Source: Actinomycetota bacterium (GTDB lineage: Bacteria > Actinomycetota > Acidimicrobiia > Spongiisociales > UBA11373). From it: a stretch of DNA of 64,000 nt. Location of the stretch: positions 21,824 through 85,823 of the forward strand of contig JAHLKU010000003.1 of the NCBI GenBank assembly GCA_020444505.1. The letters run 5' to 3'. Under the pieces are notes generated by a model. It saw only the letters and a list, made by a program, of their open reading frames with translations. It ran no database searches and had not been told where the DNA came from. A program made the translations under genes and the position numbers. Below, in pieces: positions 4,362 to 38,701 of this stretch. The first letter of the stretch is position 1. Every line of letters starts with the position of its first letter.

Positions 4362-5297
4362 ATGACCACGCGCGTCTCCGACCGGCTCGTCTGGGCGGTC
4401 GTCCTCCTCATCACCTTCGGGTGGGGCACGCTCCCGGTGCTGATCCGGGTGGCGCTGCGGGAGGACCTGCGCCCGCTGGTCATCGCCGCAGCACCCTCGA
4501 TCGTGGCGGCCGTCGCCCTGGCGCTGTTCCTGGTGGCGACGCGGCGCCTCCACTCGATCGGCTCCACCGAGGTCCGCATCGGGCTGGCGCTGGCGGCGTT
4601 GAGTGTGGTGCTGCCCAACCTGCTCCGCCCCCTGGCTGCCGAGCACGCGTCGGCGGGGTTCCTGGGGCTCACCTCGGCGCTGGTGCCGCTGACCACGGTG
4701 TTGCTGGCGCACTTCGTCCTCGCCGACGAACGGCTGAAGGCCGCCACGGCGGGCGGCCTGCTGCTCGGCCTGGCCGGCGTGGCGACCCTGGTGCTGTCGG
4801 GCGACTCCGGCCTCGGCGCCAAGGGCAACGTGGTGCTGGCGGCCGCCTACGCGATGGGGAGCGTGCTGTCGGTGTCGCTGTCGGCGGTGTTCGCCAAGCG
4901 CTTCGCCGGCCGGTACTCGGTGATGGGCGTGTCGTGGGTGCAGTTCGCCGCGGGGGCGGCGGTCCTGACCGCGGCAGCGCTGGTGTGGGAGGGGGTGCCG
5001 CCCAATCCGACACTGCTGGGGTGGGGCAGCCTCGTCTTCCTGGGCCTGCTCTGCACGTTCATGCCGGTGGTGCTCTTCTACTGGCTGCTGCAGCACGTCA
5101 CCGTCACCTACTCCACCATCATCGGGTATCTGATCCCGCTGGTGTCGGTGGTGGTGGGGTGGCTGTTCCTGGACGAGACCGTGGGGTGGGGGATCCTCCT
5201 CGGCGGCATCCTGATCCTCGGCGGGGTGGTCGTGACCGACCTCATCCGGGTCCGTGACGCCCGCCGGGAGCGGGCGGCCGCCGGCCGAACCCTCTGA
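4362..5297 (+). CDS. DMT superfamily (EamA-like) transporter
   Basis: 311 aa with about 10 TM segments and an EamA-like duplicated architecture. Confidence 0.75.
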   Translation: MTTRVSDRLVWAVVLLITFGWGTLPVLIRVALREDLRPLVIAAAPSIVAAVALALFLVATRRLHSIGSTEVRIGLALAALSVVLPNLLRPLAAEHASAGFLGLTSALVPLTTVLLAHFVLADERLKAATAGGLLLGLAGVATLVLSGDSGLGAKGNVVLAAAYAMGSVLSVSLSAVFAKRFAGRYSVMGVSWVQFAAGAAVLTAAALVWEGVPPNPTLLGWGSLVFLGLLCTFMPVVLFYWLLQHVTVTYSTIIGYLIPLVSVVVGWLFLDETVGWGILLGGILILGGVVVTDLIRVRDARRERAAAGRTL

Positions 5298-5378
5298 TGG
5301 CGGTGGCGCGCTGCGCTGCGATGGGGTAGGGTGACCCGGACTTGGTCTGATGGTAAGACCAACCCTCTGGGAGGCACG

Positions 5379-6656
5379 ATGCGACAGCCGCTCCGTCTCG
5401 ACGTGCACACCGTCGAGATCGACCAGATCCGCTTCGGGGACCACACCGGGGTGGACGACGGAGCCCTCGTCGTCGACCGCGACGCCCTGGCGGCCCTGAT
5501 CCTCGAGGACCCCCGGATCGCCGGCGTGGACGTCCGGATCGCCCAGCCCGGCGACGACATCCGCATCATCGGGTGCCTGGACGCCGTCGAGCCCCGCTGC
5601 AAGGTGGGAGATGGGTCGGTGTTCCCCGGGTTCCTCGGCGGCATGGAGACCGTCGGGGAGGGCGAGACCCTCCGCCTCGGCGGGGTGGCGGTGCTGGCGT
5701 CGAGCCGGTACCCGCAGCCGTTCTCAGGGCTGCTCCAGGCCCGCGAGGCGGTGGTGGACATGCGGGGGCCCACCGCCAACCTCAGCCCCTTCGGGCGGAC
5801 GCTCAACCTGGTGCTGGCCTACACCCCCAACCCCGACATCGACAACGAGGACTACGACGACGCCATCCGCCGCAGCAACCTGAGGGTGGCCGAGCACCTG
5901 GCTACGCAGGCGCTCGACGCCCCCCGCGCCTCCACCACCACGTTCGACATCTCCGAGCAGGACCCCGACCTCCCCAACGTGGTGTACTTCTACCAGTTGC
6001 AGGGCCAGGGCCCCATGGCCGACACCTACCTCTACGGCCGGGTCATCCACAACCTGGTGCCCACGGTGATGCACCCCAACGAGGCGCTCGACGGTGCCAT
6101 CGTGTGCGGGGTGTACGTGTACGGGTGCTACAAGAACGTCACCTACCTGCACCAGAACAACCCGATCATCTGGGAGTTGCAGCGCCGCCACGGCAAGGAG
6201 TTGAACTTCGCCGGGGTCGTCATCAACCGGGGCCACAACTACACCCAGGAGGACAAGGAGCGGTCCTCGCGGTGGGCGGCCAAGCTGATCGAGTTCCTCG
6301 AAGCCGACGGCGCCGTGTTCACCGCCGAGGGCGGCGGCAACTCGGCGATCGACATGATGCTCGCGGTCCAGTACCTGGAGCAGGCCGGGGTGGAGACCGC
6401 GGTGGTGTCCTCGGAGGCCGCCGGCGAGGACGGCTACGACTTCCCGCTCTTCTACACCGTGCCCGAGGCGGACGCCATCGTCAGCGTCGGGTCGGAGGAC
6501 GAGGTGTTCGACATGCCGGAGGTGGCCGAGGTCATCGGCGGCGACACGCTGTTGGACGGCCAGCCCGCCGCCGGGCCGTACCGGCTCAAGATGTACTTCC
6601 AGTTCTGCGGCACCCAGCAGGTCGGCGGCAACGTGCTCGTGGGGAGGGTCCACTGA
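5379..6656 (+). CDS. grdE: glycine/sarcosine/betaine reductase component B proprotein (GrdE/GrdG/GrdI family; alpha/gamma subunits, pyruvoyl enzyme precursor)
   Basis: N-terminus MRQPLRLDVHTVEIDQIRFGD ... DVRIAQPGDDIRIIGCLDAVEPRCKV parallels GrdE family N-termini. GGGAGG RBS upstream of ATG 5379. The stop overlaps the grdB start (TGATG). Confidence 0.75.
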   Translation: MRQPLRLDVHTVEIDQIRFGDHTGVDDGALVVDRDALAALILEDPRIAGVDVRIAQPGDDIRIIGCLDAVEPRCKVGDGSVFPGFLGGMETVGEGETLRLGGVAVLASSRYPQPFSGLLQAREAVVDMRGPTANLSPFGRTLNLVLAYTPNPDIDNEDYDDAIRRSNLRVAEHLATQALDAPRASTTTFDISEQDPDLPNVVYFYQLQGQGPMADTYLYGRVIHNLVPTVMHPNEALDGAIVCGVYVYGCYKNVTYLHQNNPIIWELQRRHGKELNFAGVVINRGHNYTQEDKERSSRWAAKLIEFLEADGAVFTAEGGGNSAIDMMLAVQYLEQAGVETAVVSSEAAGEDGYDFPLFYTVPEADAIVSVGSEDEVFDMPEVAEVIGGDTLLDGQPAAGPYRLKMYFQFCGTQQVGGNVLVGRVH

Positions 6657-7966
6657 TGGTGAGGGTCGCCCACTACATCAACCAGTTCTTCGCCGGCATC
6701 GGCGGCGAAGACAAGGCCGACCACCCCTTCGAGGTGCGCGAGGGCGCCGTCGGGCCCGGCCGGGCCGTGGAGATGGCGGGCGGTGGCGACGTGGAGATCG
6801 TCCAGACCCTGGTCTGCGGCGACAACGCCTTCCACGCCGACACCGAGGGCACCCTGGCAGCGATCGAGGCGGCCCTCGCCGAGAGCAAGCCGGACCTGCT
6901 CATCGCCGGCCCCGGGTTCAACGCCGGGCGGTACGGCCTGGCGTGCGCCGCGGTGTGCGCCGTCGCCACCGAGAAGCTGGGCATCCCGGCGCTCACCGGC
7001 GTGTACGTCGACGCCCCCGCCGTGGACGTGTACCGCAGCCGGGTGGTGATGGTGCCGACCGGCGACAGCGCGGCGGGGATGAAGGACGCCGTCGAGGGCA
7101 TGCTCCGGGTGGGCCTGCGCCTGGCGGCAGGGGAGCCGCTCGGTCCCGCCGAGGAGGACGGGCGCATCCCCATGGGCTTCCGCAAGGCCGTGGTCACCGA
7201 GACCCCGGTGGCGGCCCGGGTCGTGGACATGCTGATGGCCAAGCTGCGGGGCGAGCCGTTCACCAGCGAGGTCGCCCTGCCCGAGCCGGCCGAGGCGGTG
7301 CCGCCGGCGCCGCCGGTGGCCGACCTGTCCGGGGCGGTGGTGGCGGTGGTCACCGACGGCGGCCTGGTGCCGGTGGGCAACCCCGACGGCATCGAGTCGT
7401 CGAGCGCCACGAAGTGGGCCCGCTACCCGATCGACGACCTGGTCCGCAACGACGACCCCTCGTTCATGTCCATCCACGCCGGGTACGACTCGCAGTGGGT
7501 GGACGCCGACCCCGACCGCCTGGTGCCCATCGACGCCCTGCTGGACCTGGAGGCCGAGGGCGTGATCAAGGAGGCGCACCCCTACTACTACGTCACCACC
7601 GGCACCGGCACCACCGTCACCCACGCCGAGCGGATGGGGGAGGAGATCGCCAAGCAGTTGATCTCCGACGGCGTCCACGCCGTGCTGGTCACCAGCACCT
7701 GAGGCACCTCCACGCGTTGCGGTGCAACGCTCGCAAAGATGATCGAGAAGGCCGGCATCCCGGCGGCACACCTGGCGGCGATGACGTCGATGGCCAAGAT
7801 CGCCGGGTCGAACCGGATCATCTCCTCCGGCCTCATCCCCCATCCGGTCGGCGACCCGTCGCGCTCTCCGGAGGAGGAGCTGAAGTGGCGCACCGGGCAG
7901 GTCCGCAAGGCCCTGAACGCCGCGGCGACGCCGCTCGACGAGGCCCTGATCTTCCCGGACTGGTAA
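6656..7966 (+). CDS. grdB: glycine/sarcosine/betaine reductase selenoprotein B (GrdB/GrdF/GrdH family) with in-frame UGA (Sec) at 7700..7702
   Basis: The ORF 6656..7702 ends in ...VLVTST-UGA. Read-through continues in frame (UGTSTRCGATLAKMIEKAGIPAAH ... PHPVGDPSRSPEEELKW...) into track ORF 7739..7966. The total is 436 codons, the typical GrdB size. The flanking motif STU-GT-x-TRCGAT matches the family Sec site. A SECIS-like hairpin lies at 7714..7730. Confidence 0.8.
7714..7730 (+). promoter_or_regulatory. SECIS-like stem-loop downstream of grdB UGA (GCGTTGC-GGU-GCAACGC)
   Basis: Perfect 7-bp inverted repeat beginning 11 nt after UGA 7700..7702, with GGUG in the apical region. Spacing and position match bacterial SECIS elements. 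Confidence 0.55.
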
Positions 7967-7982
7967 TCGAGTGAGGGACGCC

Positions 7983-9410
7983 ATGATCCAACCCGCCATC
8001 CTCCACACCGCCTACGCCCTGGCCCACGCGCCGGACTTCGTCCGCTACGGCTCCAAGCCCACCAGGGAGCTGCCGGCCAACCCCGGGCTGCTGGAGGAGA
8101 TGACGGCGGCGCTGCGGCCCTGGGACGAGGTGGTGGCCTACCCGCCGAACCAGGTGTTCATCGGCAACCTGAGCCCCGACGAGCTCGCCGCCACCCCGCG
8201 GCCCTGGTACGAGCACCTGGTCCCCGACGCCTCGCCCATCGGCCCGTGGGGGCGCATCGTCACCCAGGCGGCGCTCTACGGCCTCATGAAGCTGTGCGAC
8301 GACTTCGACCTCCTGACGATCACCGAGGCGGTCGCCGCCGAGGCCCGCGAGGAGCTCACCCGCTTCGAGCACCGGCGGGACCGCATCACCGGCGTCCCGC
8401 CGGAGGACCTGGCGGCGCTCATCGGCAAGCACGACGGCCTCACCCTGTACCACCGCGGCGAGGTCGCGGGGTTCCTGCGCACCGCCCACGAGCAGGACCC
8501 CTCGCTGGACGCCCATGTGCTGTTCGAGAACCTGGCCTGCAAGGCGACGGCGGTGCTGGCCGTCAACGACGCGTTCGATGGTGGCCCCATCGGCCCCGAA
8601 GACGTCGACTACCTGCTCAACACCGGCGAGGAGGCCGTCGGCGACCGCTACCAGCGCGGCGGCGGCAGCCTGTCCAAGGCCGTCGGCGAGGTGGTGGGGT
8701 GCCTCAACGCCACCGGGTCGGACATCAAGGCGTTCTGCTCGGCCCCGGTGCACGCCATCATCTCCGCCTCGGCGATGGTGGCCTCCGGCCTCCACAAGTA
8801 CGTGGTGGTGCTCGGGGGCGGGTCGCAGGCGAAGATGGGCATGAAGTTCCGGGCCCACCTCCGCAACGGCGTCCCGGTGATGGAGGACTGCCTGGCGTCG
8901 ATGGCGTTCGTCGTCGGGCCGGACGACGGCACCGGCATGCGGGTGCGGCTCGACGTCACCGGCAAGCATCCCATCGGCGCCGGGTCGTCGGCCCAGCACG
9001 TGTACCAGGCGCTGGTGGTGGAGCCGCTGGAGCGGGCCGGCATGACCATGACCGACGTGGACCGCTACGCCGTCGAGATGCACAACCCCGAGATCACCGA
9101 ACCGGGCGACAGCGGCGACGTCCCCAAGACCAACTACCGCACGCTGGCGGCGATGGCGGTGCTGCGGGGCGAGATCGAGCGGGACCAGATGGACGAGTTC
9201 TCCGCCACCCACGGCATGCCCGGGTTCTCGCCCACCCAGGGCCACATCCCCGCCGGGGTGCCGTTCCTCGGCCACGCCCTGGCGGCCATGCGGCGCGGCG
9301 AGATGGACAACGCGATGATCGTCGCCAAGGGCAGCCTGTTCCTCGGCCGGATGACGCAACTCGTCGACGGGGTGTCGTTCCTCGTCGAGGCGCCGTCCGA
9401 GCCGTCGTGA
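7983..9410 (+). CDS. grdC: glycine reductase complex component C, beta-subunit-like protein (GrdC family, thiolase/FabH-like fold)
   Basis: Motifs PNQVFIGNLSPDELA, QRGGGSLSKA, GCLNATGSDIKAFCSAPVHA, YAVEMHNPEITEP, GHIPAGVPF and GSLFLGRMTQLVDGVSF resemble the GrdC family. ATG 7983 is preceded by GAGGGA. The track start at 7971 is an upstream GTG. Confidence 0.65.
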   Translation: MIQPAILHTAYALAHAPDFVRYGSKPTRELPANPGLLEEMTAALRPWDEVVAYPPNQVFIGNLSPDELAATPRPWYEHLVPDASPIGPWGRIVTQAALYGLMKLCDDFDLLTITEAVAAEAREELTRFEHRRDRITGVPPEDLAALIGKHDGLTLYHRGEVAGFLRTAHEQDPSLDAHVLFENLACKATAVLAVNDAFDGGPIGPEDVDYLLNTGEEAVGDRYQRGGGSLSKAVGEVVGCLNATGSDIKAFCSAPVHAIISASAMVASGLHKYVVVLGGGSQAKMGMKFRAHLRNGVPVMEDCLASMAFVVGPDDGTGMRVRLDVTGKHPIGAGSSAQHVYQALVVEPLERAGMTMTDVDRYAVEMHNPEITEPGDSGDVPKTNYRTLAAMAVLRGEIERDQMDEFSATHGMPGFSPTQGHIPAGVPFLGHALAAMRRGEMDNAMIVAKGSLFLGRMTQLVDGVSFLVEAPSEPS

Positions 9411-9447
9411 CCGTGATGGATCGAGCAGAGGAAGGAGGTGCACTGCA

Positions 9448-9915
9448 ATGGATCTGAAGGGAAAGCGCATCGTCGCCATCGGCGAGCGCGAGGGCATCAA
9501 CGGCCCCAGCCTGAAGCTGCTCGCCGAGTCGGCGGGTGCGACGGTGGTCTTCAGCGTCACCCAGTGCTTCGTCTGAACGGCTGGTGGAGCCATGGACCTG
9601 GACGACCAGGCGAACGTGAGTCGCCTGGCCGAGGAGTCCGGGACCGACGACATGCTCGTCGTCCTGGGCCAGCCGGATCCCAACAGTGCGGGCCTCTTCG
9701 CAGAGACCGTCACTCGAGGCGATCCGACCTGGGCAGGTCCGTTGGCCGGAGTCCCGTTGGGGCTCCCCGTGTATCACATCCTCGAAGAGGAGATCAAGGA
9801 GTCGATGGACCCCGACCTGTATCAGGAGCACGTGGGCCTGATGGAGTTGTCGGCGGACGTCGACGAGATCGTGAAGTGGGTCAAGTTCTACCGCGAGGGC
9901 GGCGGCGAGGCCTGA
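9448..9915 (+). CDS. grdA: glycine/sarcosine/betaine reductase selenoprotein A (GrdA) with in-frame UGA (Sec) at 9574..9576
   Basis: Strong RBS GAAGGAGG 8 nt upstream of ATG 9448. The N-terminal ORF MDLKGKRIVAIGEREGINGP ... VVFSVTQCFV ends at UGA. It continues in frame as TAGGAMDLDDQ ... ETVTRGDPTWAGPLAGVPLGLPVYHILEEEIKE (track ORF 9592..9915). The CFV-U-TA(A/G)GAMDL motif is the canonical GrdA Sec site. Confidence 0.85.
9579..9591 (+). promoter_or_regulatory. candidate SECIS apical hairpin downstream of grdA UGA (GGCU-GGUGG-AGCC); uncertain
   Basis: Short 4-bp stem with a GGUGG loop starting 2 nt after the UGA. Alternative stems exist at 9597..9610 and 9606..9628. The exact SECIS fold cannot be resolved by eye. 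Confidence 0.25.
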
Positions 9916-9931
9916 CAGTCAGGAGACGACG

Positions 9932-11395
9932 ATGTCCCAGGAGATCATGAAGCTCGACATGTTCGTCCACGGCGAGTGGCGCGCCGGATCGACCGGCGAC
10001 GTCGTCGAGGTGATGAACCCGGCCAAGGACGAGGTGCTCGCCACCGTGCCCGACGGCGGCGCCGAGGACCTCGACGCCGCGATGGCGTCGGCGGCCGAGG
10101 GCCTGAAGGTGTGGCGCGCCACCCATCCCCGCACGCGGGCCCAGGTCATCGCCAAGATGGCCGCGACCCTGCAGGAGCGGGCCCAGGAGTACGCCGAGTT
10201 GTACAGCCTCAACTCGGGCGGCTCGATCGGCACCGGGCTGTGGACCATGTACGACGTGGCCGGCCGGCGCTTCGAGTACTACGCCGGGCTCGCCGACAAG
10301 GTCCGGGGCGACACGTTCGTCACCCCCGGCGAGTTCCTCAGCTACACGCTGCGGGAGCCGGTGGGCATCACCGGGCACATCATCCCGTGGAACGGGCCGC
10401 TGTGGATCGGCAGCCGCACCATCGCCCCGGCGCTGGCCGCAGGGAACTCGGTGGTCGTGAAGCCGTCGAGCGAAGCGCCCGTCACCCTGCTCAAGTTCGC
10501 CGAGATGGCCGTGGAGTGCGGCCTGCCGCCCGGGGTGCTCAACGTGGTCACCGGCCGGGGCAGCGGCATGGGCGACCTGTTCACCCGCCACGAGGCCCTC
10601 GACGGCATCTACTTCACCGGGTCCACGTGGACCGGGCGGAAGATCCTCGCGAACACCGCGACCACCAACGTGCGGACGGTGATGGAACTGGGCGGCAAGT
10701 CGCCCAACATCGTGTTCGCCGACGCCGACATGGAGGCTGCCCTCGACGGGGCGATCATGGCGATCTTCGCCAACTCGGGGCAGATCTGCGTGGCCGGGTC
10801 CCGGCTGCTGGTGCAGGCGTCCATCCACGACGAGTTCGTGGAGCGCCTCGCCGCCAAGGCCGCCGAGATCACCATCGGCGGCCCCGAGGCGAACGCCCTC
10901 ATGGGCCCGCTGATCACCTCCGCCCAGCGCGAGAAGGTGCTCGAGTACATCGCCTCCGGCAAGGAGGAGGCCGACCTGGTGACCGGCGGCGGCGTCCCGG
11001 ACGACCCGGCGCTGCAGAAGGGCTACTTCGTGGCGCCGACGATCTTCGACGGCGTGCCCAACACCGCCCGGATCGCCCGCGAGGAGATCTTCGGGCCGGT
11101 GCTCTCCGTCACCTCGTTCGAGGACTTCGACGAGGCGATCACCCTGGCCAACGACACCGAGTACGGCCTGGCGTCGGCGGTGTGGACCGGCGACGTCGCC
11201 ACGGCGCACAACGCAGCACAGGCGCTGGAGGCCGGCCAGGTGTACATCAACCACTACTACACGGCCGCCTTCGAGACGAGCCGGTCGCCGTACAAGGCGA
11301 GCGGCCACGGCATGAGCGAGGGCCCCGACGCCATCTACGAGTACCTCAACCAGAAGGCCGTCAGCGTCAAGCTGGGCGAAGGCGAGGGGTGGTAG
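9932..11395 (+). CDS. NAD(P)-dependent aldehyde dehydrogenase family protein
   Basis: 487 aa with an ALDH catalytic Cys motif (GQICVAGSRLLV), ELGGKSP, and the N-terminal Rossmann GxxxxG region. Confidence 0.85.
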   Translation: MSQEIMKLDMFVHGEWRAGSTGDVVEVMNPAKDEVLATVPDGGAEDLDAAMASAAEGLKVWRATHPRTRAQVIAKMAATLQERAQEYAELYSLNSGGSIGTGLWTMYDVAGRRFEYYAGLADKVRGDTFVTPGEFLSYTLREPVGITGHIIPWNGPLWIGSRTIAPALAAGNSVVVKPSSEAPVTLLKFAEMAVECGLPPGVLNVVTGRGSGMGDLFTRHEALDGIYFTGSTWTGRKILANTATTNVRTVMELGGKSPNIVFADADMEAALDGAIMAIFANSGQICVAGSRLLVQASIHDEFVERLAAKAAEITIGGPEANALMGPLITSAQREKVLEYIASGKEEADLVTGGGVPDDPALQKGYFVAPTIFDGVPNTARIAREEIFGPVLSVTSFEDFDEAITLANDTEYGLASAVWTGDVATAHNAAQALEAGQVYINHYYTAAFETSRSPYKASGHGMSEGPDAIYEYLNQKAVSVKLGEGEGW

Positions 11396-11418
11396 CGCAC
11401 CGGGCAGCGGAAGCGTGT

Positions 11419-11438
11419 ATGGTCTGACCATAAGACCA
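11419..11438 (+). promoter_or_regulatory. FadR-type GntR operator-like palindrome ATGGTCtGACCAT with a third GACCA half-site
   Basis: Perfect 6-1-6 palindrome containing the TGGTCnGACCA core, in a relatively AT-rich 97-bp gap upstream of the adh-like gene (GTG 11492). The related site 5343..5361 lies upstream of grdE. Confidence 0.5.
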
Positions 11439-11491
11439 AGACGGCCCGCGGTGGCAGGCGCCGCGGCCGACCGAGACGATCTGGAGGCGTT

Positions 11492-12511
11492 GTGAAGGTT
11501 GCAGTGTTCACCGGGGTAGGCAGCGTGGAGATCCGGGAGGAACCGGATCCGGTGGCCGGCCCCCAGCAGGTCGTCATCGAGGTGGCCGCGTGCGGGATCT
11601 GCACGTTCGAGCGGCGCCTCTTCGCGGGCGACAAGCAGTGGTACCCGGTGAACCCGGGTCACGAGGCCTCCGGCACGGTCGTCGCCGTCGGCGAGGCGGT
11701 CGACGGTCTCCCCGGCTCGCCGCAGGTGGGCGACCGGGTCACCTTCGACCTCCTCACCCGCTGCGGCACCTGCAACCAGTGCCGCCGGGGCAAGTCGTCG
11801 CTGTGCCGGATGCGGCAGGGCCGCGTTCTCAGCGACGGCACGGTCTCGTTCGGTGGGTTCGCCGGCAAGGTCGCCATCGACGCCAAGTCGGTGTACCCGA
11901 TCGGCGATGCCCCGTTCACCCACGCCGCCATGGGCGAGCCGATCGCCTGCTGCGTGCACTCCATCCGCCAGGGCGGCCTGCTGCCCCGCGACCGGGTGGC
12001 CATCATCGGCGGCGGCCTGATGGGCCGCCTCCACCTGGCGCTGGCCCGCCTGGAGGGCGCCGGCCCGATCGGCGTCATCGACGTCTCGGAGCAGCGCCTC
12101 GCCGAGGCGACCGCCGCCGGCGCCGACTGGGTGGCCACCCCCGAGACCGCCCTCGAGGTGGGCGGCAAGCAGGACGTGGTCTTCGTCACCGCCATGGCAG
12201 GGGTGGACCTGGCCGTGGAGATGGCCGACCTCGGCGGCACGGTGGTCCTGTACAGCGCATTCGACAAGGACCTGCCGGCCACCGTCGGCGCGGACAAGTC
12301 GCACCGCGAGGAGGTCGCCATCGTCGGGGCCTTCAGCCAGGAGCCCGCCGACTGGCGCACCGGCTCGGCCCACATCCGCAGCGGCGTCATCGCCGACGCC
12401 CTCGATGCGCTGGTCACCGCCGAGTACCCGTTCTCCCAGGTGGAGGACGCCCTCAAGCTGGTGACCTCCGAGCCCACGTACCGCGTGTTCGTCGAGCCCG
12501 AGAGCGAGTGA
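11492..12511 (+). CDS. zinc-dependent alcohol dehydrogenase (MDR family; threonine/sorbitol dehydrogenase-like)
   Basis: Catalytic Zn ligands (C..H..E) and a structural Zn motif CGTCNQCRRGKSSLC. Rossmann motif GGGLMG. GTG start with GGAGG upstream. Confidence 0.8.
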   Translation: MKVAVFTGVGSVEIREEPDPVAGPQQVVIEVAACGICTFERRLFAGDKQWYPVNPGHEASGTVVAVGEAVDGLPGSPQVGDRVTFDLLTRCGTCNQCRRGKSSLCRMRQGRVLSDGTVSFGGFAGKVAIDAKSVYPIGDAPFTHAAMGEPIACCVHSIRQGGLLPRDRVAIIGGGLMGRLHLALARLEGAGPIGVIDVSEQRLAEATAAGADWVATPETALEVGGKQDVVFVTAMAGVDLAVEMADLGGTVVLYSAFDKDLPATVGADKSHREEVAIVGAFSQEPADWRTGSAHIRSGVIADALDALVTAEYPFSQVEDALKLVTSEPTYRVFVEPESE

Positions 12512-13824
12512 TGCCGGCAGAGGTCGTCGCCGGCGTCGACGTGGGCAGCAGTGCGGCGCGCGCCGTCGCGATCGATCGCGACGGCGCCGTGGTGGCCTCC
12601 TCCCGGGCCCCGTACCCCGCACACGACGGCAGCCTGGCCGGCGAGGTGGACCCCGCGGTCTGGCTCGCCGGCCTCGTCGCCGCCCTCGACGGGCTCGGTG
12701 CGCGGCCCCTGGCGCTCGGCGCCGGCGGCCACGGCCCCACCACGGTCGCCTCGACCGGCGAGCTGGCGCTGACGTTCCGCCACCCCGCCGGCGCCACCGA
12801 GGGCCCGGTGGGCCAGCACGCCGCCCACCTGCGGGTGTTGCGGGACCGCCTCGGCGACCACGTCGAGCCCCGCCAGATGTGGGACCACCTGCTGGCCCGT
12901 CTCGGTGGGGACCCCTCCACGCAGAGCATGTGGCCGGGTGAGGAGCCCCTGGAAGGCTTCGGGTCGCCGATCCCGGCCGGCACCGCCGTCGGGACCAGCG
13001 CCGGCGACCACGGCGAGCCGGAGGGGATGACCCTGGTGCCCGGCGCCAACGACGCCTACATGACCTCGTGGGCGTCGGCCATCGACACCCCCGGCCGGGC
13101 CTTCGACCCGGGCGGCAAGACCGGCGGGCTCGGCGTGGCGATCCGCGCCGAGGGGGAGCACGCCGAGATCGCCAAGTTCGGCATGCCGAGCCACGTGCCG
13201 GGCGTCGCCATCGTGGGGGGCCCGGTGGCCAGCCACGGGGCGATGATGGACTGGTGGTCGGCCGTCACCGGCCGCCCCGTCGCGGAACTGCTGGACCTGG
13301 CCGCCGACGTCGAGCCCGGCTCGCACGGCGTGATGGTGCTGCCGTTCCTCGAGGGGGAGCGTGCGCCCCGCTGGAACCTGGGCCTGCGGGCCGAGATCAC
13401 CGGCATCGGCGCCGAGACCGGCGTCGGAGTGCTGACCAGGGCGCTGGTGGAGTCCACGGCCTACGGCCTCGCCCACATCGCCCGCGACCTGGCCGGGCAC
13501 GGCATCGCGCTGGAGCGGGTCGTGTCGAGCGGCGGCCCGGCCCGCAGCCCGCTGTGGACGTCGATCAAGGCTGCTGTGCTGGACGTGCCGGTGGATGTGC
13601 CGGACTGCGACGAGATGAGCGCCTACGGGGCGGCTCTGGCCGCCGGGGCGGCGCTGGGATGGTGGCCGCGCCCGGGGGAGGGGGTCCCCGGCGACTGGCC
13701 GATGCCGGAGGTGACCACCTACGAGCCGAAGCCGCTCGAGGTGTATCGCAAGGGATTGGACCGGTTCATCGAACTCGGCGACGAGGCGGTGGCCCGGCTC
13801 GAGAGAAGCCAACCGAACGAGTAA
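12511..13824 (+). CDS. FGGY-family carbohydrate kinase (xylulokinase/LsrK-like)
   Basis: N-terminal VAGVDVGSSAARAVAID and C-terminal FGGY motifs (SGGPARSPLWTSIKAAVLDVPV ... AYGAALAAG). The start overlaps the upstream stop. Confidence 0.75.
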   Translation: MPAEVVAGVDVGSSAARAVAIDRDGAVVASSRAPYPAHDGSLAGEVDPAVWLAGLVAALDGLGARPLALGAGGHGPTTVASTGELALTFRHPAGATEGPVGQHAAHLRVLRDRLGDHVEPRQMWDHLLARLGGDPSTQSMWPGEEPLEGFGSPIPAGTAVGTSAGDHGEPEGMTLVPGANDAYMTSWASAIDTPGRAFDPGGKTGGLGVAIRAEGEHAEIAKFGMPSHVPGVAIVGGPVASHGAMMDWWSAVTGRPVAELLDLAADVEPGSHGVMVLPFLEGERAPRWNLGLRAEITGIGAETGVGVLTRALVESTAYGLAHIARDLAGHGIALERVVSSGGPARSPLWTSIKAAVLDVPVDVPDCDEMSAYGAALAAGAALGWWPRPGEGVPGDWPMPEVTTYEPKPLEVYRKGLDRFIELGDEAVARLERSQPNE

Positions 13825-13833
13825 GGAGAACGC

Positions 13834-14607
13834 ATGGAATACATGTCCTCGGCCATCGGGGCCGCCAAGACCCGCCGGGCCTCCCGGTTCCTCGAGGAGG
13901 ACGGCCGCGGCTTCCTGGTGGCCATCGACATGCAGTCGGCGTCGGGATCGGGCCCCGACCTGGACGTCGTCGAGAAGATCGCAGCCGGCGGCCCCAACGG
14001 CATCCTGGTGTCCTGGCAGATCGCTCGCCGCTACCCCGAGGCGTTCCGCAACTGCGGCATGATCCTCCGCATCGACGGCACCACCACGATGCTCGGGAAC
14101 TACGGCGCCGGCGACCAGTTCGCCCAGATGTACGAGATCGAGATGGCCGCCCGCATCGGCGCCGACGCCGTGGTCTGCATGGCGTTCCCCGGCGCCGACG
14201 ACGACGTCGTCGGCATGCGCAAGCTGGTCGCCATGGTCAACGAGGCCGAGAAGGTCGGCATGCCGGTGATCGCCGAGTCGATCCCCGGGTCGTGGGCCAA
14301 GACCGTCCCGTGGGACGCCGAGCACATCGCCAAGGCCGCCCGCATCTGCGTCGAGGTGGGCGCCGACGCCATCAAGACGATGATGCCGGAGGACCCCTCG
14401 GAGATCCCCGATGTCATCGCCAACATCGAGGCCCCGGTGTTCTGCCTGGGCGGTCCGAAGAAGGAGACCGAGGACGAGGCGGTCGAGTACGCCCGCACCG
14501 TCGTGGCCGCCGGTGCCAGCGGCATCGCCTTCGGCAGGAACGTGTTCGGGGCCAAGGACCCGACCGCCATGGTGCAGCGCCTGTACGAAGCCGTCCACGG
14601 CGCCTGA
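13834..14607 (+). CDS. class I aldolase, DhnA/FbaB family (DeoC/LacD-type TIM barrel; LsrF-like)
   Basis: 257 aa with DhnA-family motifs (GFLVAIDMQ ... RIDGTTTML ... GADAVVCMAFPG ... GMPVIAE ... FCLGGPKKETEDEAVEYARTVVAAGASGIAFGRNVF). Confidence 0.7.
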   Translation: MEYMSSAIGAAKTRRASRFLEEDGRGFLVAIDMQSASGSGPDLDVVEKIAAGGPNGILVSWQIARRYPEAFRNCGMILRIDGTTTMLGNYGAGDQFAQMYEIEMAARIGADAVVCMAFPGADDDVVGMRKLVAMVNEAEKVGMPVIAESIPGSWAKTVPWDAEHIAKAARICVEVGADAIKTMMPEDPSEIPDVIANIEAPVFCLGGPKKETEDEAVEYARTVVAAGASGIAFGRNVFGAKDPTAMVQRLYEAVHGA

Positions 14608-14618
14608 GGAGGAGCGAC

Positions 14619-15134
14619 ATGGCAGAAGAAGCCTTCACCGAAGCCTGCGTCGAGGTGATGGCGCGCACCGCCTCGGCGGTCGCCATCCTGACGCTGGAGG
14701 ACGGCGACGGCGAGAAGCATGGCATGACGATCACGTCGCTGTCGTCGGTCTCGTCGGAGCCGCCGTCGGTGGTGGTCTGTGTGGGCGAGGGCGCCTCGTC
14801 GCACCGCTGGCTCGTGCCAGGCGCCCGGTTCGGCGTGAGCCTGCTGGGCGCCGGCCAGGTGCCGTACTCCCTGGGGTTCTCCTGGGCGAAGTCCGACGAC
14901 CCGTTCGCCGACTTCCCGTGGGAGCGCGCCGAGGACGGCACGCCCTGGCTCAGCGAGGCCGCCGCCCACATGATCTGTGAGGTGGAGCAGGTGACCCCGT
15001 ACCACGGCAGCGCCGTGGTCATGGCCCGCGTGGTCGGCTGTGGGGTGCACAAGGACGAGACCCTGGTCTACTGGCGACGCAAGTACTTCGACGGCCTCAC
15101 CGAGGCCGAAGGAGGGGTGACCGGCACGTGGTGA
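14619..15134 (+). CDS. flavin reductase family protein (HpaC/RutF-like)
   Basis: 171 aa with flavin-reductase-like domain motifs (AVAILTLEDGDG ... GMTITSLSSVSSEPPSVVVCV). GAGGAGGAG RBS. It lies in the frame of a largely spurious 688-aa track ORF. Confidence 0.7.
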   Translation: MAEEAFTEACVEVMARTASAVAILTLEDGDGEKHGMTITSLSSVSSEPPSVVVCVGEGASSHRWLVPGARFGVSLLGAGQVPYSLGFSWAKSDDPFADFPWERAEDGTPWLSEAAAHMICEVEQVTPYHGSAVVMARVVGCGVHKDETLVYWRRKYFDGLTEAEGGVTGTW

Positions 15135-15616
15135 CCCCGGGCGGAGGCGCGAGGAGCGGGCCGGGCAGGACCCGGCTGACCCACCTCGCCCTCCGCGTCC
15201 ACGACCTGGAGCGCTCGATCGACTGGTACGAGCGGTACACGCCGATGCGCACCCTCAAGCGCTTCTCGGACGCCTACGGCGTGGGTGCCTGGCTGGCCGA
15301 CCCGGCCGACGGCGCGTGTCCGTTCACCATGGCCCTGTCGCAGTTCGACCCGGACAAGGATCCCTTCGCCTACGCCCCGGCTGCGGTGCTGGGACCCTTC
15401 GCCCACCTCGGGTTCGAGGTCGGCAGCCGCGACCAGGTGGATGCCATCGCCGCGATGGCCGAGGCGGAGGGCATCCTCAGCTACCCGGTCACCGAGATGC
15501 CGTATCCCATCGGGACGATCTGCTTCGTGGAGGACCCCGACGGCAACACCGTCGAGTTCTCCTTCGGGCAGGGCACCTATCCGATCTGGGACGAGGAGTG
15601 GGGGAGCGAAGCATGA
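15128..15616 (+). CDS. VOC family protein (glyoxalase/bleomycin-resistance/dioxygenase fold)
   Basis: LTHLALRVHDLERSIDWYERY ... GFEVGSRDQVDAI ... FVEDPDGNTVEF are typical VOC beta-alpha-beta-beta-beta motifs. The exact start is uncertain. Confidence 0.65.
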   Translation: MVTPGGGARSGPGRTRLTHLALRVHDLERSIDWYERYTPMRTLKRFSDAYGVGAWLADPADGACPFTMALSQFDPDKDPFAYAPAAVLGPFAHLGFEVGSRDQVDAIAAMAEAEGILSYPVTEMPYPIGTICFVEDPDGNTVEFSFGQGTYPIWDEEWGSEA

Positions 15617-16386
15617 GTGCCGACCGCCCCTTCGGGCCCGTGGAACGAGCCACCGTCCCCGAGCAGGTGCGCGACGACATCCACCGCCGCATCATCAGCG
15701 GCGAGATCCCGCCCGGCTCGCCGCTGCCGGCGGAGCGGGTGCTGGCGGAGCAGTTCGCCGTCGCCCGCACCTCGGTGCGGGAGGCCATCCAGGGGCTCAT
15801 CGCCCTCGGCGTCATCGAGCGGCGCGGGAACCGCTCCTACGTCGCCGAGCGCCTCCCCGACGCCGAGCTGCACCGCCCCGACGGCAGCAAGCGCTCATTG
15901 CGCGAGGCCCTGGAGGCGCACCACGTGCTGGAGCGCTCGCTGTTCGAGATGGCGGCCGCCCGGGCCACGATGCGGGAGCGCTCCGAGGCCCTGGCGCTGG
16001 CCCGCCGCCCCGCCCCCGCCGACGTCGGGGAGTTCCTCATCGTCGAGCGCCAGTTCCACGCCGCCATCGCCGGGGCGTGTGACAACCCGGTGCTGGTGGA
16101 GGTGTACGGCCGGATCATGGACGTGCTCATGGGCACCGACGAGGTGGTGGCCCTCGTGCTGGGGGTGGCGCCCGGCGAGGACCCGGCGCCCGCGATAGCC
16201 AAGGCCGCCTCCGAGCACCTGCGCATCGCCGAGGCGTACGTGGACCAGGACCTCACGAGGATGATGGAGGAGTGGGAGCACCACCGCGGGCCTTCGGCCT
16301 GGCGGCAGGCGGGCCGGGTGCGCCGCCCGGCCGGCCCCACCAGGGCGAGGGAGGCCTGGGGGCTCGAGAGGACGGTGGGGTCGTGA
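15613..16386 (+). CDS. GntR family transcriptional regulator, FadR subfamily (FCD domain)
   Basis: N-terminal winged HTH (PLPAERVLAEQFAVARTSVREAIQGLIALGVIERRGNRSYV) followed by an all-helical FCD-like domain. The start overlaps the upstream stop (ATGA). Confidence 0.75.
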   Translation: MSADRPFGPVERATVPEQVRDDIHRRIISGEIPPGSPLPAERVLAEQFAVARTSVREAIQGLIALGVIERRGNRSYVAERLPDAELHRPDGSKRSLREALEAHHVLERSLFEMAAARATMRERSEALALARRPAPADVGEFLIVERQFHAAIAGACDNPVLVEVYGRIMDVLMGTDEVVALVLGVAPGEDPAPAIAKAASEHLRIAEAYVDQDLTRMMEEWEHHRGPSAWRQAGRVRRPAGPTRAREAWGLERTVGS

Positions 16387-16511
16387 CCGGGGAGTGGCGC
16401 ACCCGTGTCCCCACGCCGGACGGCTCCGGATGGCGCCGCCGGGACGAAGACGTTGCCGCGAACGACACGGAATCGAGGAGTACCTGCACACACCCGGGAG
16501 CCCGCACGGCT

Positions 16512-16533
16512 CCGCCGGTGCCGTCACCGGCGG
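16512..16533 (+). other. GC-rich hairpin (CCGCCGGTG-ccgt-CACCGGCGG) in the gntR–bmp intergenic region
   Basis: Perfect 9-bp stem with a 4-nt loop, about 40 nt upstream of the BMP lipoprotein start. It could be a terminator for the upstream operon or a regulatory leader structure. Confidence 0.4.
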
Positions 16534-16573
16534 GCCGGGCTCCCAGAGCAACCGATTGGGAGGAACACCGACC

Positions 16574-17734
16574 ATGAGACGACTTGGTATCAAGTTGGTG
16601 GCGCTCATCGCCGTCCTGGGGCTGATCGCAGCCGCATGCGGCGACGACGACGCCGACACGACGGCCGCGCCGTCGACGACCGAGGCCGCTACGACGACCG
16701 AGGCCGCGACGACGACCGAGGCCGCGACGACGACCGAGGCCGCGACGACGACCGAGGCGATGGCCAACCCCGCCGACTTCAACGGCGACGGCGTGGTCCG
16801 CATCGGTGTGGCCACCGACGGCCCGCGCGACGACGGCGCCTACTACCAGGCGCTGGTGGAGAGGGTCGAGCGGATCTCGGCGGACAACGGCTTCGAAGCG
16901 CCGGTGGTCGTCGACGAGATCGACACGGCCAACTCCCGCGTCGAGCTGGAGAACCTGGCCGCCCAGAACGTGGACATCATCGCCATCGGCTCGGAGGCCG
17001 TGGCGCGGGACAACGAGGATCTCTTCACCACCTACGACGAGATCTTCTGGTACTGCAACTGCGGGTCCGGCTATGCCGACACCCCGGGCCTCCTCCGCAG
17101 CGCCGACAGCGGCGCCGAGCTGAACATCTCGGCCGGCTATGCCGCCGGGCTGCTGCTCCAGGAGCGTGGTGGCGACAGCGTGGCCTTCCTGGGCTGCTGT
17201 GACCTCCCCTTCGAGTTCGAGTCCCTGTGGGGCTTCGAATTCGGCCTGGCGCAGGTGGACCCGACGTTCACCGTCACCTACACGCCGACCGGCCAGTTCC
17301 CGTACGACTTCAACAACGTCGCCGGTGCGACGGAGGCGTACAACAACGCGGTCGCCGAGGGTGCGGATGCGGTCTACCCGTTCCTGGGCGGGGCGCACGA
17401 GCCCATCGTGCAGCTCGCCAATGCGGACGGGCTGATCGTGAACACGGCCGGTTCGTCGCAGGGTTGTGAGCGCGACGACCTCGACTACGACTTCGAGGTC
17501 ATGTTCGACGCCGGCGACTACCTCGAGCCGCTGTTCGAGGAGATCCTGGCCGGGACGGCCGAAGAGGGCACCGCCCGCTACTTCACCGTGGGCATCGACC
17601 CGCAGGTGGGTGCGGTGTTCTGCGACGCCACCCCCGAGCAGGTGCAGATGCTGGCGGACTTCAACGCCCGCATCGGGGCCGGCGACTTCGCCGACAAGAT
17701 CTACGAGATCCTGTCCGAGGCGTACGGCTTCTAG
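16574..17734 (+). CDS. BMP-family ABC transporter substrate-binding lipoprotein (PnrA-like; nucleoside/purine-type)
   Basis: Lipoprotein signal (LIAAAC lipobox), low-complexity (TTTEAA)n linker, then a BMP/PnrA-like periplasmic binding fold. Confidence 0.75.
   Translation: MRRLGIKLVALIAVLGLIAAACGDDDADTTAAPSTTEAATTTEAATTTEAATTTEAATTTEAMANPADFNGDGVVRIGVATDGPRDDGAYYQALVERVERISADNGFEAPVVVDEIDTANSRVELENLAAQNVDIIAIGSEAVARDNEDLFTTYDEIFWYCNCGSGYADTPGLLRSADSGAELNISAGYAAGLLLQERGGDSVAFLGCCDLPFEFESLWGFEFGLAQVDPTFTVTYTPTGQFPYDFNNVAGATEAYNNAVAEGADAVYPFLGGAHEPIVQLANADGLIVNTAGSSQGCERDDLDYDFEVMFDAGDYLEPLFEEILAGTAEEGTARYFTVGIDPQVGAVFCDATPEQVQMLADFNARIGAGDFADKIYEILSEAYGF
16673..16762 (+). repeat. five tandem 18-bp repeats (ACGACGACCGAGGCCGCG) encoding the (TTTEAA)n linker of the lipoprotein
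   Basis: Direct tandem repeat visible in the DNA and as EAATTT x4-5 in the protein, between the lipobox and the binding domain. Confidence 0.9.
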
Positions 17735-21574: not shown

Positions 21575-22348
21575 TCACCCTTCCAGGGCCAGCAGGGCCG
21601 CCCCGTGGGCGCCGGTCAACTGGGGATGCTCGGGGACGATCACCTCGGTGTCGAGCGCCTCGCCGATCATCGCCCGGACCCCGGCGTTGCGGGCCACGCC
21701 GCCCGACATCATCAGCGGCGGTTCCCAGCCGACGGTGCGGACCATGGCGACCAGGCGCACCGTCAGCGAGCGGTGGAGGCCCTTGAGGATGGCGTCCACC
21801 TCGGCGCCGCGGGCGAGCAGCGAGATGATCTCCGACTCGGCGAAGACGGTGCAGGTGGAGGTGATCTGCTCCTCGCTGCCGGGGGCAGCCACCCGGCCGC
21901 CGAGGTCGGCGACGTCCAGGCCGAGGCGGCCGGCGGTGTACTCCAGGAACCGGCCGGTGCCGGCGGCGCACTTGTCGTTCATCACGAAGTCCGCCGGCCG
22001 GCCGTCGGGGCCGATGCGGATGACCTTGCTGTCCTGGCCGCCGATGTCCACCAGGGTCCCGGCCCGGCCCAGGTCGTCGAACACGCCCCTGGCGTGGCAC
22101 GTGATCTCGGTGACCCGCCGGTCGGCGCACTCCACCAGGCGGCGGCCGTAGCCGGTGGCGACGCAGCGGGCGCCGGGGGCCACGTCGTGGGCGGAGCGCA
22201 GGCCGTCGAGCATCGCCGCCGTCTGGTCGGCGATGCGGGGGAGGGCCTGCTCCAGGGCGGTGGCGACGACGGCGCCGGAGGGGTCCACCGCCACCGCCTT
22301 GCAGGTGGTGGACCCGGCGTCGATGCCGATGCCGGCGATGGCGGTCAC
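21575..22348 (-). CDS. 2-hydroxyacyl-CoA dehydratase activator ATPase (BadF/BadG/BcrA/BcrD/HgdC family)
   Basis: N-terminus [22 protein letters not shown] (ASKHA-fold phosphate-1 motif), then ...[14 protein letters not shown] ... [11 protein letters not shown] start overlapping the upstream stop (GTGA). The long N-terminal extension in track ORF 21575..23596 is spurious. Confidence 0.8.
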
Positions 22349-23655
22349 GACATCATCTCCACGAACGCCTCCAGGCGGGTGGTGGCCTGCTCCTCGGCGT
22401 AGGAGCGAGGGTCGTTGTGGTCGGCCTCCAGCAGCAGCGCAGGCACCCCCACGTCGGCGACCAGCCGGTCGCGCTGGTCGATCTGGCCCAGCGAGTACGG
22501 CTTGCACGACCGGTCGCTGTGCAGGATCACCCCGTCGATGGAGAACTCCTCCACCATGCGGCGCATCGCCGCCAGTTTGTGGCCGGTGGAGCGGTTGAGG
22601 ATCGGGTGCAGGTACACCCGGGCCATCGCCTCGAACGGCTCGGCCGGGTCCATCATCTCGGCCAGTTCGCCCCAGGCATGGGTGTAGGTGCTGGCCACCA
22701 CGTTCACGCCCCGCTCCGCCAGCCAGCGCGACAGCGGGCCGATGCGGTACCAGATGGGGAGGTTGTCCCACAGCACCCGGAGCCGCTCGTCCTTCACCGC
22801 CCCGACGCCCCGTGCGATGCGCTCGTCCAGTTCGGCCAGCAGCGACTCGTAGAAGGCCACGGTGGCCTGGTCGCCGCGCAGGTCGACGATCGGGCCCAGG
22901 TTCACGAACGAGTCGAAGGCGGTCAGCGGCGACGGGCGGTGGCGGGCCCGCTCCAGGATCTCCAGCCACAGGTCGCTGGCCTGCTTCGCCCTCGCCACCA
23001 CCGCCGTGAACCCGTCGAGCGAGAACTCCCGGCCGGCCGCCGCCTCGGCGGCCGGCACCATGTCCTCCAGCTGCCGCCGCACGAAGTCCACCTGGTGCGG
23101 CTCGGCGGCGTCGCCGTACAGGAACGGGGTGTCCACCAGCACCAGGGGGCAGCCGAAGTGGTCGGCGAGCACCCGGTACCAGTAGAGGACCGTCTGACAG
23201 ATGTTCGTGCAGCACAGCAGCAGGTCGGGCGGTGGGAGGCTTCCCACCGGCGTGTCGCCCGACAGCAGCGAGCCGAGGTCGGTGCGGGCGTACGAGCAGA
23301 GGTCGCGGGAGTACCCGGCGTCCTCGGCGGCCGACGACAGCGCCTCGGCCCGGCGGCGGGCCCCGCACAGCGCGGCGTGGTTCTCGGGGTAGACCAGGTG
23401 GTACCCGAGCGCCTTCAGGATCTCGGTGGGCGCCCCGCTCGTCACCCATGCCACCGGCCTGCTGCCCGACACCGAGCGGCCCGCCAGGTAGTGGCGGCTC
23501 ATCATCTCCCGCATGCGGATGGTGCTGCGCAACGGCGGGTTGAGGGGGCTGCCGGGGTCGGGCGCCCGCCGGTCGTAGCGGCGCTCGGCCCGCCACCGCT
23601 GCACCCGCAGGGCCGCCGACCCGGCGCCGAGGCGGAGGCGGTGGCCCATCGTCAT
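22345..23655 (-). CDS. 2-hydroxyacyl-CoA dehydratase family protein, subunit (HgdA/BcrB-like D-component)
   Basis: 436 aa with conserved Cys residues (e.g. ...[11 protein letters not shown]...) typical of the HgdAB/BcrBC [4Fe-4S] dehydratase family. Confidence 0.7.
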
Positions 23656-24728
23656 GCCAGCGTCTCCACGAACGCCTCGATGCGGGTGATCACCCGGTGC
23701 CCCAGCTCGCCGCCCAGCTCCACCTCGACGTGGGCCACGGGGTAGCCGGCGTCGCCCAGGTGGCGGCGCAGCAGCGGCACGTCGAACAGCTCCGGCTCGC
23801 AGAACGCCACGTCGTAGATCAGCATCCCCTTCGCCCCGGCGGCCGCCATCCGCCCGGCCAGCGCCGCGGCGCGCGCGGCGATCGGCGTGCCCCGGGTGGG
23901 GTCGGGCGGGGAGCCGAGCAGGCGGTCGGCCAGGCGCTCGATCGGGTCGGCGGCGTCCGACGGCGGGTAGAGGCGCCGCGCCCCGGCGGCCAGGTCGTCG
24001 GCCACCACCCGGGCCCCCGCCTCGGCCAGGTGGTCGAACAGGCTCATCGGCTCCGGCACGATGCCCGACAGCAACAGCCCGATCCCGCTCGGCGCCGTGC
24101 CGCGGGGCACGGCGGCCGCCGCCTCCACGAACTCCTCGGCGGCCAGGTACTCGCGGCTGCGGACCACCTCGTAGAACTCACGGTCGCCCACCGCCAGTGC
24201 CTCCCGGTCCCGGTAGAGGGCCGCCAGCGTCTCGTCGGCCGCCTCCTCGGCGGCGAGCGCATCCGCCCAGCCGGCATCGGTGGGCCGCCCCCCGGCGATC
24301 CCAGCCAGGCGGTCCGACAGCCGGCGCAACTCGGCGACCAGGTACTCGCGGTCGGTGGGCCGGCCCGCCCGGGGCAGGTACAGGGTCAGGACGTGCTGGG
24401 AGGGCTGCAGGAAGTCGCCGGCCACCGACCCCATGCCCTGCAGCGCGTCGCAGGTGTGGGGGACCAGCAGCACGCCGGCCCGCTCCAGGCCGCCCCGCAG
24501 CAGGAACGACGTCGCCCGCACCACGATGTCGCAGGTGTACGCCTGGAAGTGGCGGCCGCCCTCGTCCCGGGGCACGCCCGGCGGCCCCCACACCTCCACC
24601 GGGTGGAAGCCGTGTGCCCGCAGCAGGGCCCTCGGGTAGTGGTAGGGGAGCACGGCGGCGATCCGCTGCCCGCGCGCCTCGGCCCGGGCGATCGCCTCGC
24701 TGCGGCTGGGCCTGTGGGTGACGGTCAC
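23652..24728 (-). CDS. 2-hydroxyacyl-CoA dehydratase family protein, second subunit (HgdB-like)
   Basis: 358 aa, same family. The stop overlaps the start of the downstream subunit (ATGA). Together with 21575..22348 it forms a three-gene operon. Confidence 0.65.
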
Positions 24729-29487: not shown

Positions 29488-29524
29488 CGCCACGCGGCGG
29501 CGTCCGAGCCGCGAGAATCCCGCC

Positions 29525-32092: not shown

Positions 32093-32135
32093 GGCTGCAT
32101 GCTAGGGCTGCAGGGATCCCCTCCAGCCGGGCACG

Positions 32136-32222
32136 TCGATCGAGTGATTCGATGGTCTGAAGTACTTGAGCAACGAGTTGCACGGTCGGTAGAACCATGA
32201 TACTGTTCGACACAGATCGAAC
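32136..32222 (+). promoter_or_regulatory. divergent promoter/operator region with TCGATCGA palindrome, ATGGTCTGA half-site and GTTCGA-N6-TCGAAC inverted repeat
   Basis: About 50% GC island between the divergently transcribed 5'-nucleotidase (minus, start 32092) and the ArsR-family gene (plus, start 32241). Confidence 0.4.
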
Positions 32223-32240
32223 GCCGTCAAGGAGATCGAC

Positions 32241-38668: not shown

Positions 38669-38701
38669 CAACATTGTGCTATCATAACTAGCACAATGTT
38701 G
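38669..38701 (+). promoter_or_regulatory. AT-rich perfect 13-bp inverted repeat CAACATTGTGCTA-N7-TAGCACAATGTTG overlapping the start codon of the YtrA-like GntR gene (putative autoregulatory operator)
   Basis: Striking low-GC palindrome in a ~70% GC background. The right arm contains the ATG at 38696. It is preceded by a GGGAGGCCTCCC palindrome (38653..38664) just after the SDR stop. Confidence 0.6.

Follow-up and report, generated by a model that had tools for sequence, protein, structure and literature searches.

The stretch of DNA considered here (64,000 nucleotides with a G+C content of 73%, hereafter the window) is placed by its GrdC homologues among uncultured Acidimicrobiia/Actinomycetota. 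It carries on the plus strand a complete-looking grd operon of five tightly packed genes (5379-11395), which run in the order grdE, grdB, grdC, grdA and aldehyde dehydrogenase, with no grdD among them. The first gene, grdE-like and coding for a component B proprotein (5379-6656; Pfam Gly_reductase, E 7e-120), starts from an ATG at 5379 behind the SD sequence GGAGG at 5370-5374, and its best NCBIfam match is sarcosine GrdG, far below the cut-off. It is followed by a gene for a grdB-like selenoprotein B (6656-7974; Pfam GRDB, E 1e-130) with an in-frame TGA (Sec) at 7700-7702, by grdC for the beta subunit of reductase complex component C (7971-9410; NCBIfam reduct_C_beta, 595 bits against a cut-off of 450), by grdA for selenoprotein A (9448-9915), whose Sec TGA at 9574-9576 falls in the motif CFVUTAGGAMDL, and by the aldehyde dehydrogenase gene (9932-11395; Pfam Aldedh, E 5e-157). 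Ordinary gene finders would miscall both TGA codons as stops. The best NCBIfam scores of the component B subunits come from sarcosine reductase models, and because these scores lie far below the cut-offs (305 against 780 and 377 against 800 bits), they suggest that the substrate of this reductase is not sarcosine.

A second group of genes, the adh operon, comprises in order a Zn-ADH gene with a GTG start (11492-12511) and genes for an FGGY kinase (12508-13824), a DeoC/LacD-type aldolase (13834-14607), a flavin reductase (14604-15134), a glyoxalase/VOC protein (15128-15616) and, in sixth and last place, a GntR regulator (gntR; 15613-16386), all on the plus strand. Since these genes overlap or abut, they most likely form a single transcript. 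A gap of 187 nt (16387-16573) separates gntR from genes for a Bmp/PnrA-type lipoprotein SBP, an ABC ATPase and permeases; the true start of the SBP gene is the ATG at 16574, and an ORF start at 16394 was rejected as spurious. The gap contains a long G+C-rich hairpin at about 16496-16544 (the fold of 16440-16575 has an energy of -58.4 kcal/mol, z = -2.3), which may act as a terminator or a processing site and so set the transporter genes apart from the adh-gntR operon. The ABC transporter genes are followed directly by an adjacent pair of HGD-D (2-hydroxyacyl-CoA dehydratase D-component-like) genes on the minus strand (22345-24728), with no activator ATPase gene noted nearby.

The product of gntR combines an N-terminal GntR winged helix-turn-helix (wHTH) with a C-terminal all-helical FCD/FadR_C domain (Pfam GntR, E 2e-17; FCD, E 1e-11; both above the gathering scores), which bears out its assignment to the FadR subfamily in an earlier first-pass annotation of this DNA. 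Its closest solved relatives are Rv0494, FadR-family structures, PdhR, LldR (PDB 2di3) and NanR, and its wHTH aligns with those of Rv0494, PdhR and the FadR family. Residues equivalent to the DNA-contact residues R35, R45, T46, R49 and G66 of FadR are present here and invariant in all nine orthologues (9/9). No NCBIfam equivalog reached its cut-off; the top match was NanR (73.5 bits against 260), and orthology with LldR was rejected (63.3 bits against 311). A second GntR-family gene in the window (38696-39046), 27 kb from the sites described below, encodes a YtrA-like protein of 116 aa with an HTH domain only, and no evidence links it to the motif found there.

An asymmetric 19-bp element in front of two operons

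Between an EamA/DMT transporter gene (4362-5297) and the grdE-like gene there is a gap of 81 nt, which contains at 5343-5361 the sequence TGGTCTGATGGTAAGACCA (plus strand). This perfect 6-7-6 inverted repeat ends 17 nt short of the ATG and so extends from 36 to 18 nt before the start, the position given in the first-pass annotation. The sister site that was proposed upstream of the adh-like gene is likewise present as an exact match, TGGTCTGACCATAAGACCA, at 11420-11438 of the plus strand, 54 nt before the GTG of the Zn-ADH gene in the gap that follows the aldehyde dehydrogenase gene. These two predicted operators, designated O1 and O2, are both intergenic and stand directly before the first genes of the two tightly packed operons. 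Within the 64 kb, TGGTCT-N7-AGACCA has exactly these two exact matches, against 0.00 expected from 100 dinucleotide-preserving shuffles; for the asymmetric 19-mer TGGTCTKACCATMAGACCA, 0.02 matches are expected even at up to three mismatches. With a site matrix, O1 scored 33.6 bits (on the minus strand) and O2 37.3 bits, and the next best position in the window reached 6.9 bits.

Two candidates for a third site were rejected, as both scored below 6 bits with this matrix. One is TGGTCCGACCA at 29648, inside ORF 29423-30328. The other is the half-site at 32152-32160 to which the earlier annotation had drawn attention: the string ATGGTCTGA is indeed there, but it is a mere 8-9-mer match of the kind expected by chance (TGGTCTGA occurs 4 times against 1.1 expected). 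The surrounding region (32093-32240) lies between divergent genes, one for a 5'-nucleotidase (minus strand) and the other, on the plus strand, for a protein whose C terminus carries an ArsR-type HTH, and contains no match to the GntR motif. That short words containing TGGTC do arise at random might be taken to mean that O1 and O2 are themselves chance palindromes without function, yet the full pattern is expected only 0.00-0.02 times and is kept at orthologous positions in many genomes. This conservation effectively refutes a chance origin, to which we assign a negligible probability.

Read on the minus strand, O1 (TGGTCTTACCATCAGACCA) is identical to O2 at 17 of 19 positions, and the count rises to 21 of 23 with the flanking T/A and AG; the two sites are thus copies, in opposite orientations, of a single asymmetric element. 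The alternative that the palindrome of O1 lies in a different register from that of O2 was rejected, since reverse-complementing O1 reveals the same element inverted. The 19-mer contains three half-sites. TGGTC (positions 1-5) and GACCA (7-11) together give the 11-bp palindrome TGGTC-N-GACCA, and a second GACCA (15-19) follows 3 nt downstream as the third half-site. In O2 the core palindrome TGGTCTGACCA occupies 11420-11430 and the third half-site 11434-11438, and in O1 the core (4-3-4 or 5-1-5) occupies 5351-5361 and reads TGGTAAGACCA, or TGGTCTTACCA on the other strand. The consensus of the element is TGGTC(T/A)GACC(A/G)(T/A)C(A/T)G(A/T)CC(A/G), in which the third half-site, 3 bp beyond the palindrome, takes the form GNCC(A).

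Which of the two symmetries matters can be read from 147 unique sites, a set that is partly circular, as it was gathered with the site matrix. Information is concentrated in TGGTC (1-5), GACC (7-10), G15 and C17-C18, with moderate preferences for A-T-C at 11-13. Complementarity is kept at the inner dyad pairs (2-10, 3-9 and 4-8) in 143-147 of the 147 sites; by contrast, pair 4-16 of the outer repeat is broken without compensation in 39 sites (T-T in 38 of them), and pair 6-14 is unpaired without compensation in 60. The 6-7-6 repeat was rejected as the functional unit on these grounds, and it is a by-product of half-sites 1 and 3. The 6-7-6 repeat described earlier thus exists, but the unit that is conserved is the asymmetric 19-mer, a 5-1-5 palindrome with a third half-site, which is inverted in O1 relative to O2.

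The same variation bears on whether the repeat works as RNA, that is, as a hairpin in the grdE 5' leader that affects stability or translation. The sequence 5340-5364 can indeed form a hairpin of 7 bp (-8.7 kcal/mol, z = -2.7). The 147 sites, however, preserve sequence and not pairing, with no compensatory variation; the asymmetric element points towards the downstream gene in some cases and away from it in others, and many copies are found between divergent genes or in front of the likely transcription start. A cis-regulatory RNA, be it a riboswitch or a leader hairpin, was rejected on the basis of the uncompensated breaks at 4-16 and 6-14, together with an Rfam scan of the whole window in which no family matched. 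A role as RNA is accordingly very improbable, and the pattern of variation across the aligned sites is what one expects of a protein-binding DNA site. At 11444-11469, between O2 and the adh SD, there is a separate inverted repeat rich in G+C, GGCCCGCGG...CCGCGGCC; it was seen only in the window and its closest relative (L027), and its folding energy is no better than that of shuffled sequences (z = -0.07).

Conservation of the site and its association with the regulator gene

A scan with a GrdC alignment, using one genome per species, yielded 80 loci, 10 of which share the adh-FGGY-deoC genes; an orthologue of the GntR regulator (52-72% identity) is found in 8 of these 10. The 19-mer is nearly invariant in these eight syntenic Acidimicrobiia loci (GrdC 74-85% identical) and in one partial locus (L007), and its flanks are unalignable. 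A site stands 14-22 nt before the grdE ATG in six loci (L001, L003, L004, L006, L018 and L027), with the inverted orientation of O1 recurring in L027, and the site in the gap between the aldehyde dehydrogenase and adh genes is kept in these six and in L007, L019 and L020. One further locus, L002, was not scored for an O2 equivalent, as its contig ends 262 nt after the aldehyde dehydrogenase gene. The site is therefore kept upstream of orthologous grd operons, which was one of the two checks set for it by the first-pass annotation.

Additional copies extend the set of putative targets. Six of the eight syntenic loci have a site (TGGTCTGACCATCAGTCCA) in the gap between gntR and the SBP gene; L001 and L003 have extra copies before glyoxalase-gntR, which would point to autoregulation; L004 has one before EamA; and L001 has one before a non-homologous SsuA-like SBP gene, which is located upstream of the grd operon and replaces the Bmp-type one. 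No such transporter-proximal site was found in the gntR-SBP gap of the window (best score -1.6 bits), and the gaps of L027 and L001 also lack it. Because this site is missing in the window and in L027, the predicted regulon is not identical across lineages.

Among the 10 syntenic loci, presence of the motif follows presence of the regulator gene: it occurs in all eight that have the GntR gene and in neither of the two that do not (L005 and L015). The matrix used for these counts was built from 23 sites and then rediscovers them, a circularity that is mitigated by a zero background and by an independent metagenome set. As for the background, the 23-site matrix gave no hit of at least 14 bits in about 1.2 Mb of the other 70 grdC loci; the site is thus absent from related DNA without the regulator, and its occurrence is not that of a random word, which was the other check.

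The metagenome set was assembled with an alignment of the nine GntR orthologues and consists of 80 contigs (39-85% identity). Sites scoring 20 bits or more occur in 65 of the 80, and in 59 a site lies within 400 bp of gntR; of 145 sites, none falls inside the gntR coding sequence. Most contigs at 42-48% identity are arranged differently and have no grd genes: gntR and the glyoxalase gene diverge from a shared region that contains one or two sites, and further sites precede glyoxalase-like genes, a block of hydantoinase A/B, AMP-ligase and Rieske oxygenase genes, and a Bmp-type SBP gene. The motif therefore tracks the regulator and not the grd genes, which is the strongest evidence in hand that this GntR protein is the one predicted to bind the sites. 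The sites lie between genes in presumed promoter regions, and they co-occur with the regulator.

These data also bear on whether the sites could belong to another protein, either the short GntR protein of 38696-39046 or an LldR/PdhR-like FadR-type regulator whose gene lies in another part of the genome; the local FCD regulator would in that case recognise something else. In favor of this idea, the TGGTnnnACCA core is common to several FadR-type regulators, a second GntR-family gene does exist in the window, and the analysis of this genome covered the window only. Against it, the motif accompanies the FCD-GntR gene in two unrelated gene arrangements, and still does so at 39% identity; sites are found in the divergent promoter region of that very gene; the motif is missing from syntenic loci that lost the gene; and the wHTH is nearly invariant among the orthologues, as is the motif. 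We consider a different regulator improbable and take the product of gntR to be the likely binding protein.

The gene content linked to the motif in the more distant contigs can be seen in L103-L160, for example in L130 (6600-20200), where the motif is found before three glyoxalase/VOC genes, hydantoinase/oxoprolinase A and B, an AMP-dependent ligase, two Rieske oxygenases and a Bmp-type SBP. These contigs have in common with the regulon of the window only the glyoxalase-like gene, gntR and the Bmp-type transporter.

Relation to known GntR operators

The consensus operator of the FadR subfamily is TNGTNNNACNA (Rigali et al., as quoted in PMC11472048). Both sites in the window fit it exactly (TGGT-CTG-ACCA and TGGT-AAG-ACCA), with TGGTCTGACCA at 11420-11430 and TGGTAAGACCA at 5351-5361 as the (pseudo)palindromes. 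The operator of E. coli FadR and the PdhR box are examples of this consensus, and the PdhR box shares the TGGTnnnACCA core. The regulator resembles this subfamily in its PdhR- and Rv0494-like wHTH and in the FadR contact residues that it keeps; the element differs from FadR-subfamily operators in its extra conserved third half-site, which extends it to an asymmetric 19 bp. A selenoprotein reductase together with an ADH, a kinase and an aldolase has not been described among the targets of the subfamily.

A close precedent is LldR of Corynebacterium glutamicum, a FadR-type GntR repressor of cgl2917-lldD whose operator, defined by ITC and EMSA and located at -4 to +13, is TGGTCTGACCA itself; one LldR dimer occupies this high-affinity site and helps a second dimer cooperatively onto an adjacent weak site (PMC2602784). 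The 11-bp core, the actinobacterial host and the GntR plus FCD architecture are thus alike, and the core of O1 and O2 has the form of a FadR-subfamily operator, as the first-pass annotation had proposed. The LldR site overlaps the transcription start, a position to which that of the present sites can be likened by way of their putative -10 hexamers (see below). The two systems differ in that the second LldR element is a separate pseudo-palindrome, whereas here a single GACCA half-site follows at 3 bp, and in that lactate genes are absent from this locus and the regulator is not an LldR orthologue. Membership in an LldR (L-lactate) regulon was rejected accordingly, as the cluster has neither lldD nor lldP and the LldR score is below the cut-off.

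A functional third half-site has a precedent in E. coli NanR, a FadR-subfamily repressor acting on (GGTATA)3, three closely spaced half-site repeats to which three dimers bind cooperatively (PMC8012715). The NanR repeats are all direct and of different sequence, whereas in the present element two half-sites are inverted and one is direct.

Outside the FadR subfamily, the outer repeat shares the half-site words TGGTCT and AGACCA with dre, the DasR-responsive element of Streptomyces, whose consensus is TGGTCTAGACCA. In dre, however, the half-sites abut (16 bp); in the present element 7 bp separate them, and it is the inner TGGTC-N-GACCA that forms the conserved dyad. Moreover, DasR belongs to the HutC subfamily and has a UTRA domain, while the local regulator carries FCD, and DasR structures were weak, HTH-only matches to it. 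Membership in the DasR/dre (HutC) class was rejected because of this spacing, the 5-1-5 dyad and the FCD domain. No relevant report of a GntR-controlled grd operon or of an Acidimicrobiia glycine reductase turned up in literature searches. The type of switch, a GntR/FadR-type repressor with a TGGTnnnACCA operator, is already known, and the predicted pair of regulator and operator appears to be new.

Promoter geometry and the predicted switch

A putative -10 hexamer of the TANNNT type, TAGGGT, lies on the plus strand at 5327-5332, 10 nt upstream of O1, and TAGGGT recurs at the same distance from the site in L027. At O2 the putative hexamer is TATGGT (11418-11423, plus strand), which overlaps the 5' end of the operator and is found at offset -2 in all 10 adh sites (10/10); in L001, L003, L004, L006 and L018 it is preceded by TGC, resembling the TGn of an extended -10 element. 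Overall, 25 of 27 sites have a TANNNT hexamer, either across the 5' end of the operator or 13-22 nt upstream of it, with the promoters so predicted following a loose TANNNT rule. In L018, L019 and L020 the operator abuts the SD. Scans around O1 and O2 found no E. coli-type sigma-70 promoter and no intrinsic terminator.

The reading that we favor, with a probability of roughly 0.8, is that the 19-bp sites are two operators of the GntR/FCD regulator encoded at 15613-16386, acting as a repressor-type switch. Repression rather than activation is indicated by the -10-like hexamers, which the sites either overlap or closely follow. An activator or dual role of the same protein is the alternative: FadR-subfamily members can activate, as E. 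coli FadR does at fabA, and the scan found no canonical sigma-70 promoter. Activator sites, however, normally lie near -40 or further upstream, and the sites here stand 14-22 nt before grdE starts, or even against the SD in the three loci just named, and they overlap or follow the sole -10-like hexamers, the position of the LldR repressor site (-4 to +13). Activation is thus unlikely, though somewhat less so than the involvement of another regulator.

If the protein is a repressor, the 11-bp TGGTC-N-GACCA palindrome would be the site for one winged-helix dimer, and the third half-site would probably recruit or stabilise a second dimer, a point that is conjectural. With operators that overlap the likely -10 hexamer or fall between the hexamer and the SD, the unliganded regulator may block RNA polymerase by promoter occlusion or as an early roadblock, and would in this way repress both grdE-grdB-grdC-grdA-aldehyde dehydrogenase and adh-kinase-aldolase-flavin reductase-glyoxalase-gntR. 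A small-molecule effector bound by the FCD domain would presumably release it. As gntR is the last gene of the operon behind O2, the circuit would be autoregulated.

The earlier suggestion that the grd operon and the catabolic adh operon constitute one local regulon gains support from the sites before both. The grd operon, the ADH-kinase-aldolase operon and, in relatives, the Bmp-type ABC transporter would then be one inducible unit of uncultured, mostly marine Acidimicrobiia, which supports the idea that all of them act on one substrate. A regulator-operator pair of this kind can be cloned, and its inducer could reveal the substrate of a divergent glycine/sarcosine-type reductase.

A wider reading is more tentative, and we hold it to be possible rather than probable. 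It supposes that the three-half-site element, with two inverted and one direct TGGTC, defines a distinct and widespread GntR-FCD subfamily of Acidimicrobiia/Actinomycetota that places more than one dimer on a compact operator, in a NanR-like manner. The regulon would then mark an uncharacterised pathway that always includes a Bmp-type ABC importer and glyoxalase-like enzymes and to which, in the lineage of the window, a Sec-dependent GrdE/GrdB/GrdC/GrdA reductase of new substrate specificity was recruited beside an ADH-kinase-aldolase route. If this is true, the operator offers a way to the inducer, and through it to the substrate of the reductase.

Being rich in information and free of false matches in about 1.2 Mb, the motif lends itself to regulon reconstruction in complete MAGs. 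The contig of locus L001 (CAXMOL010000162.1) is labelled 'uncultured Kiloniellaceae', an alphaproteobacterial family, yet it is syntenic with the Acidimicrobiia loci, its GrdC is 81% identical and it has the same operators; it is probably a mis-binned contig.
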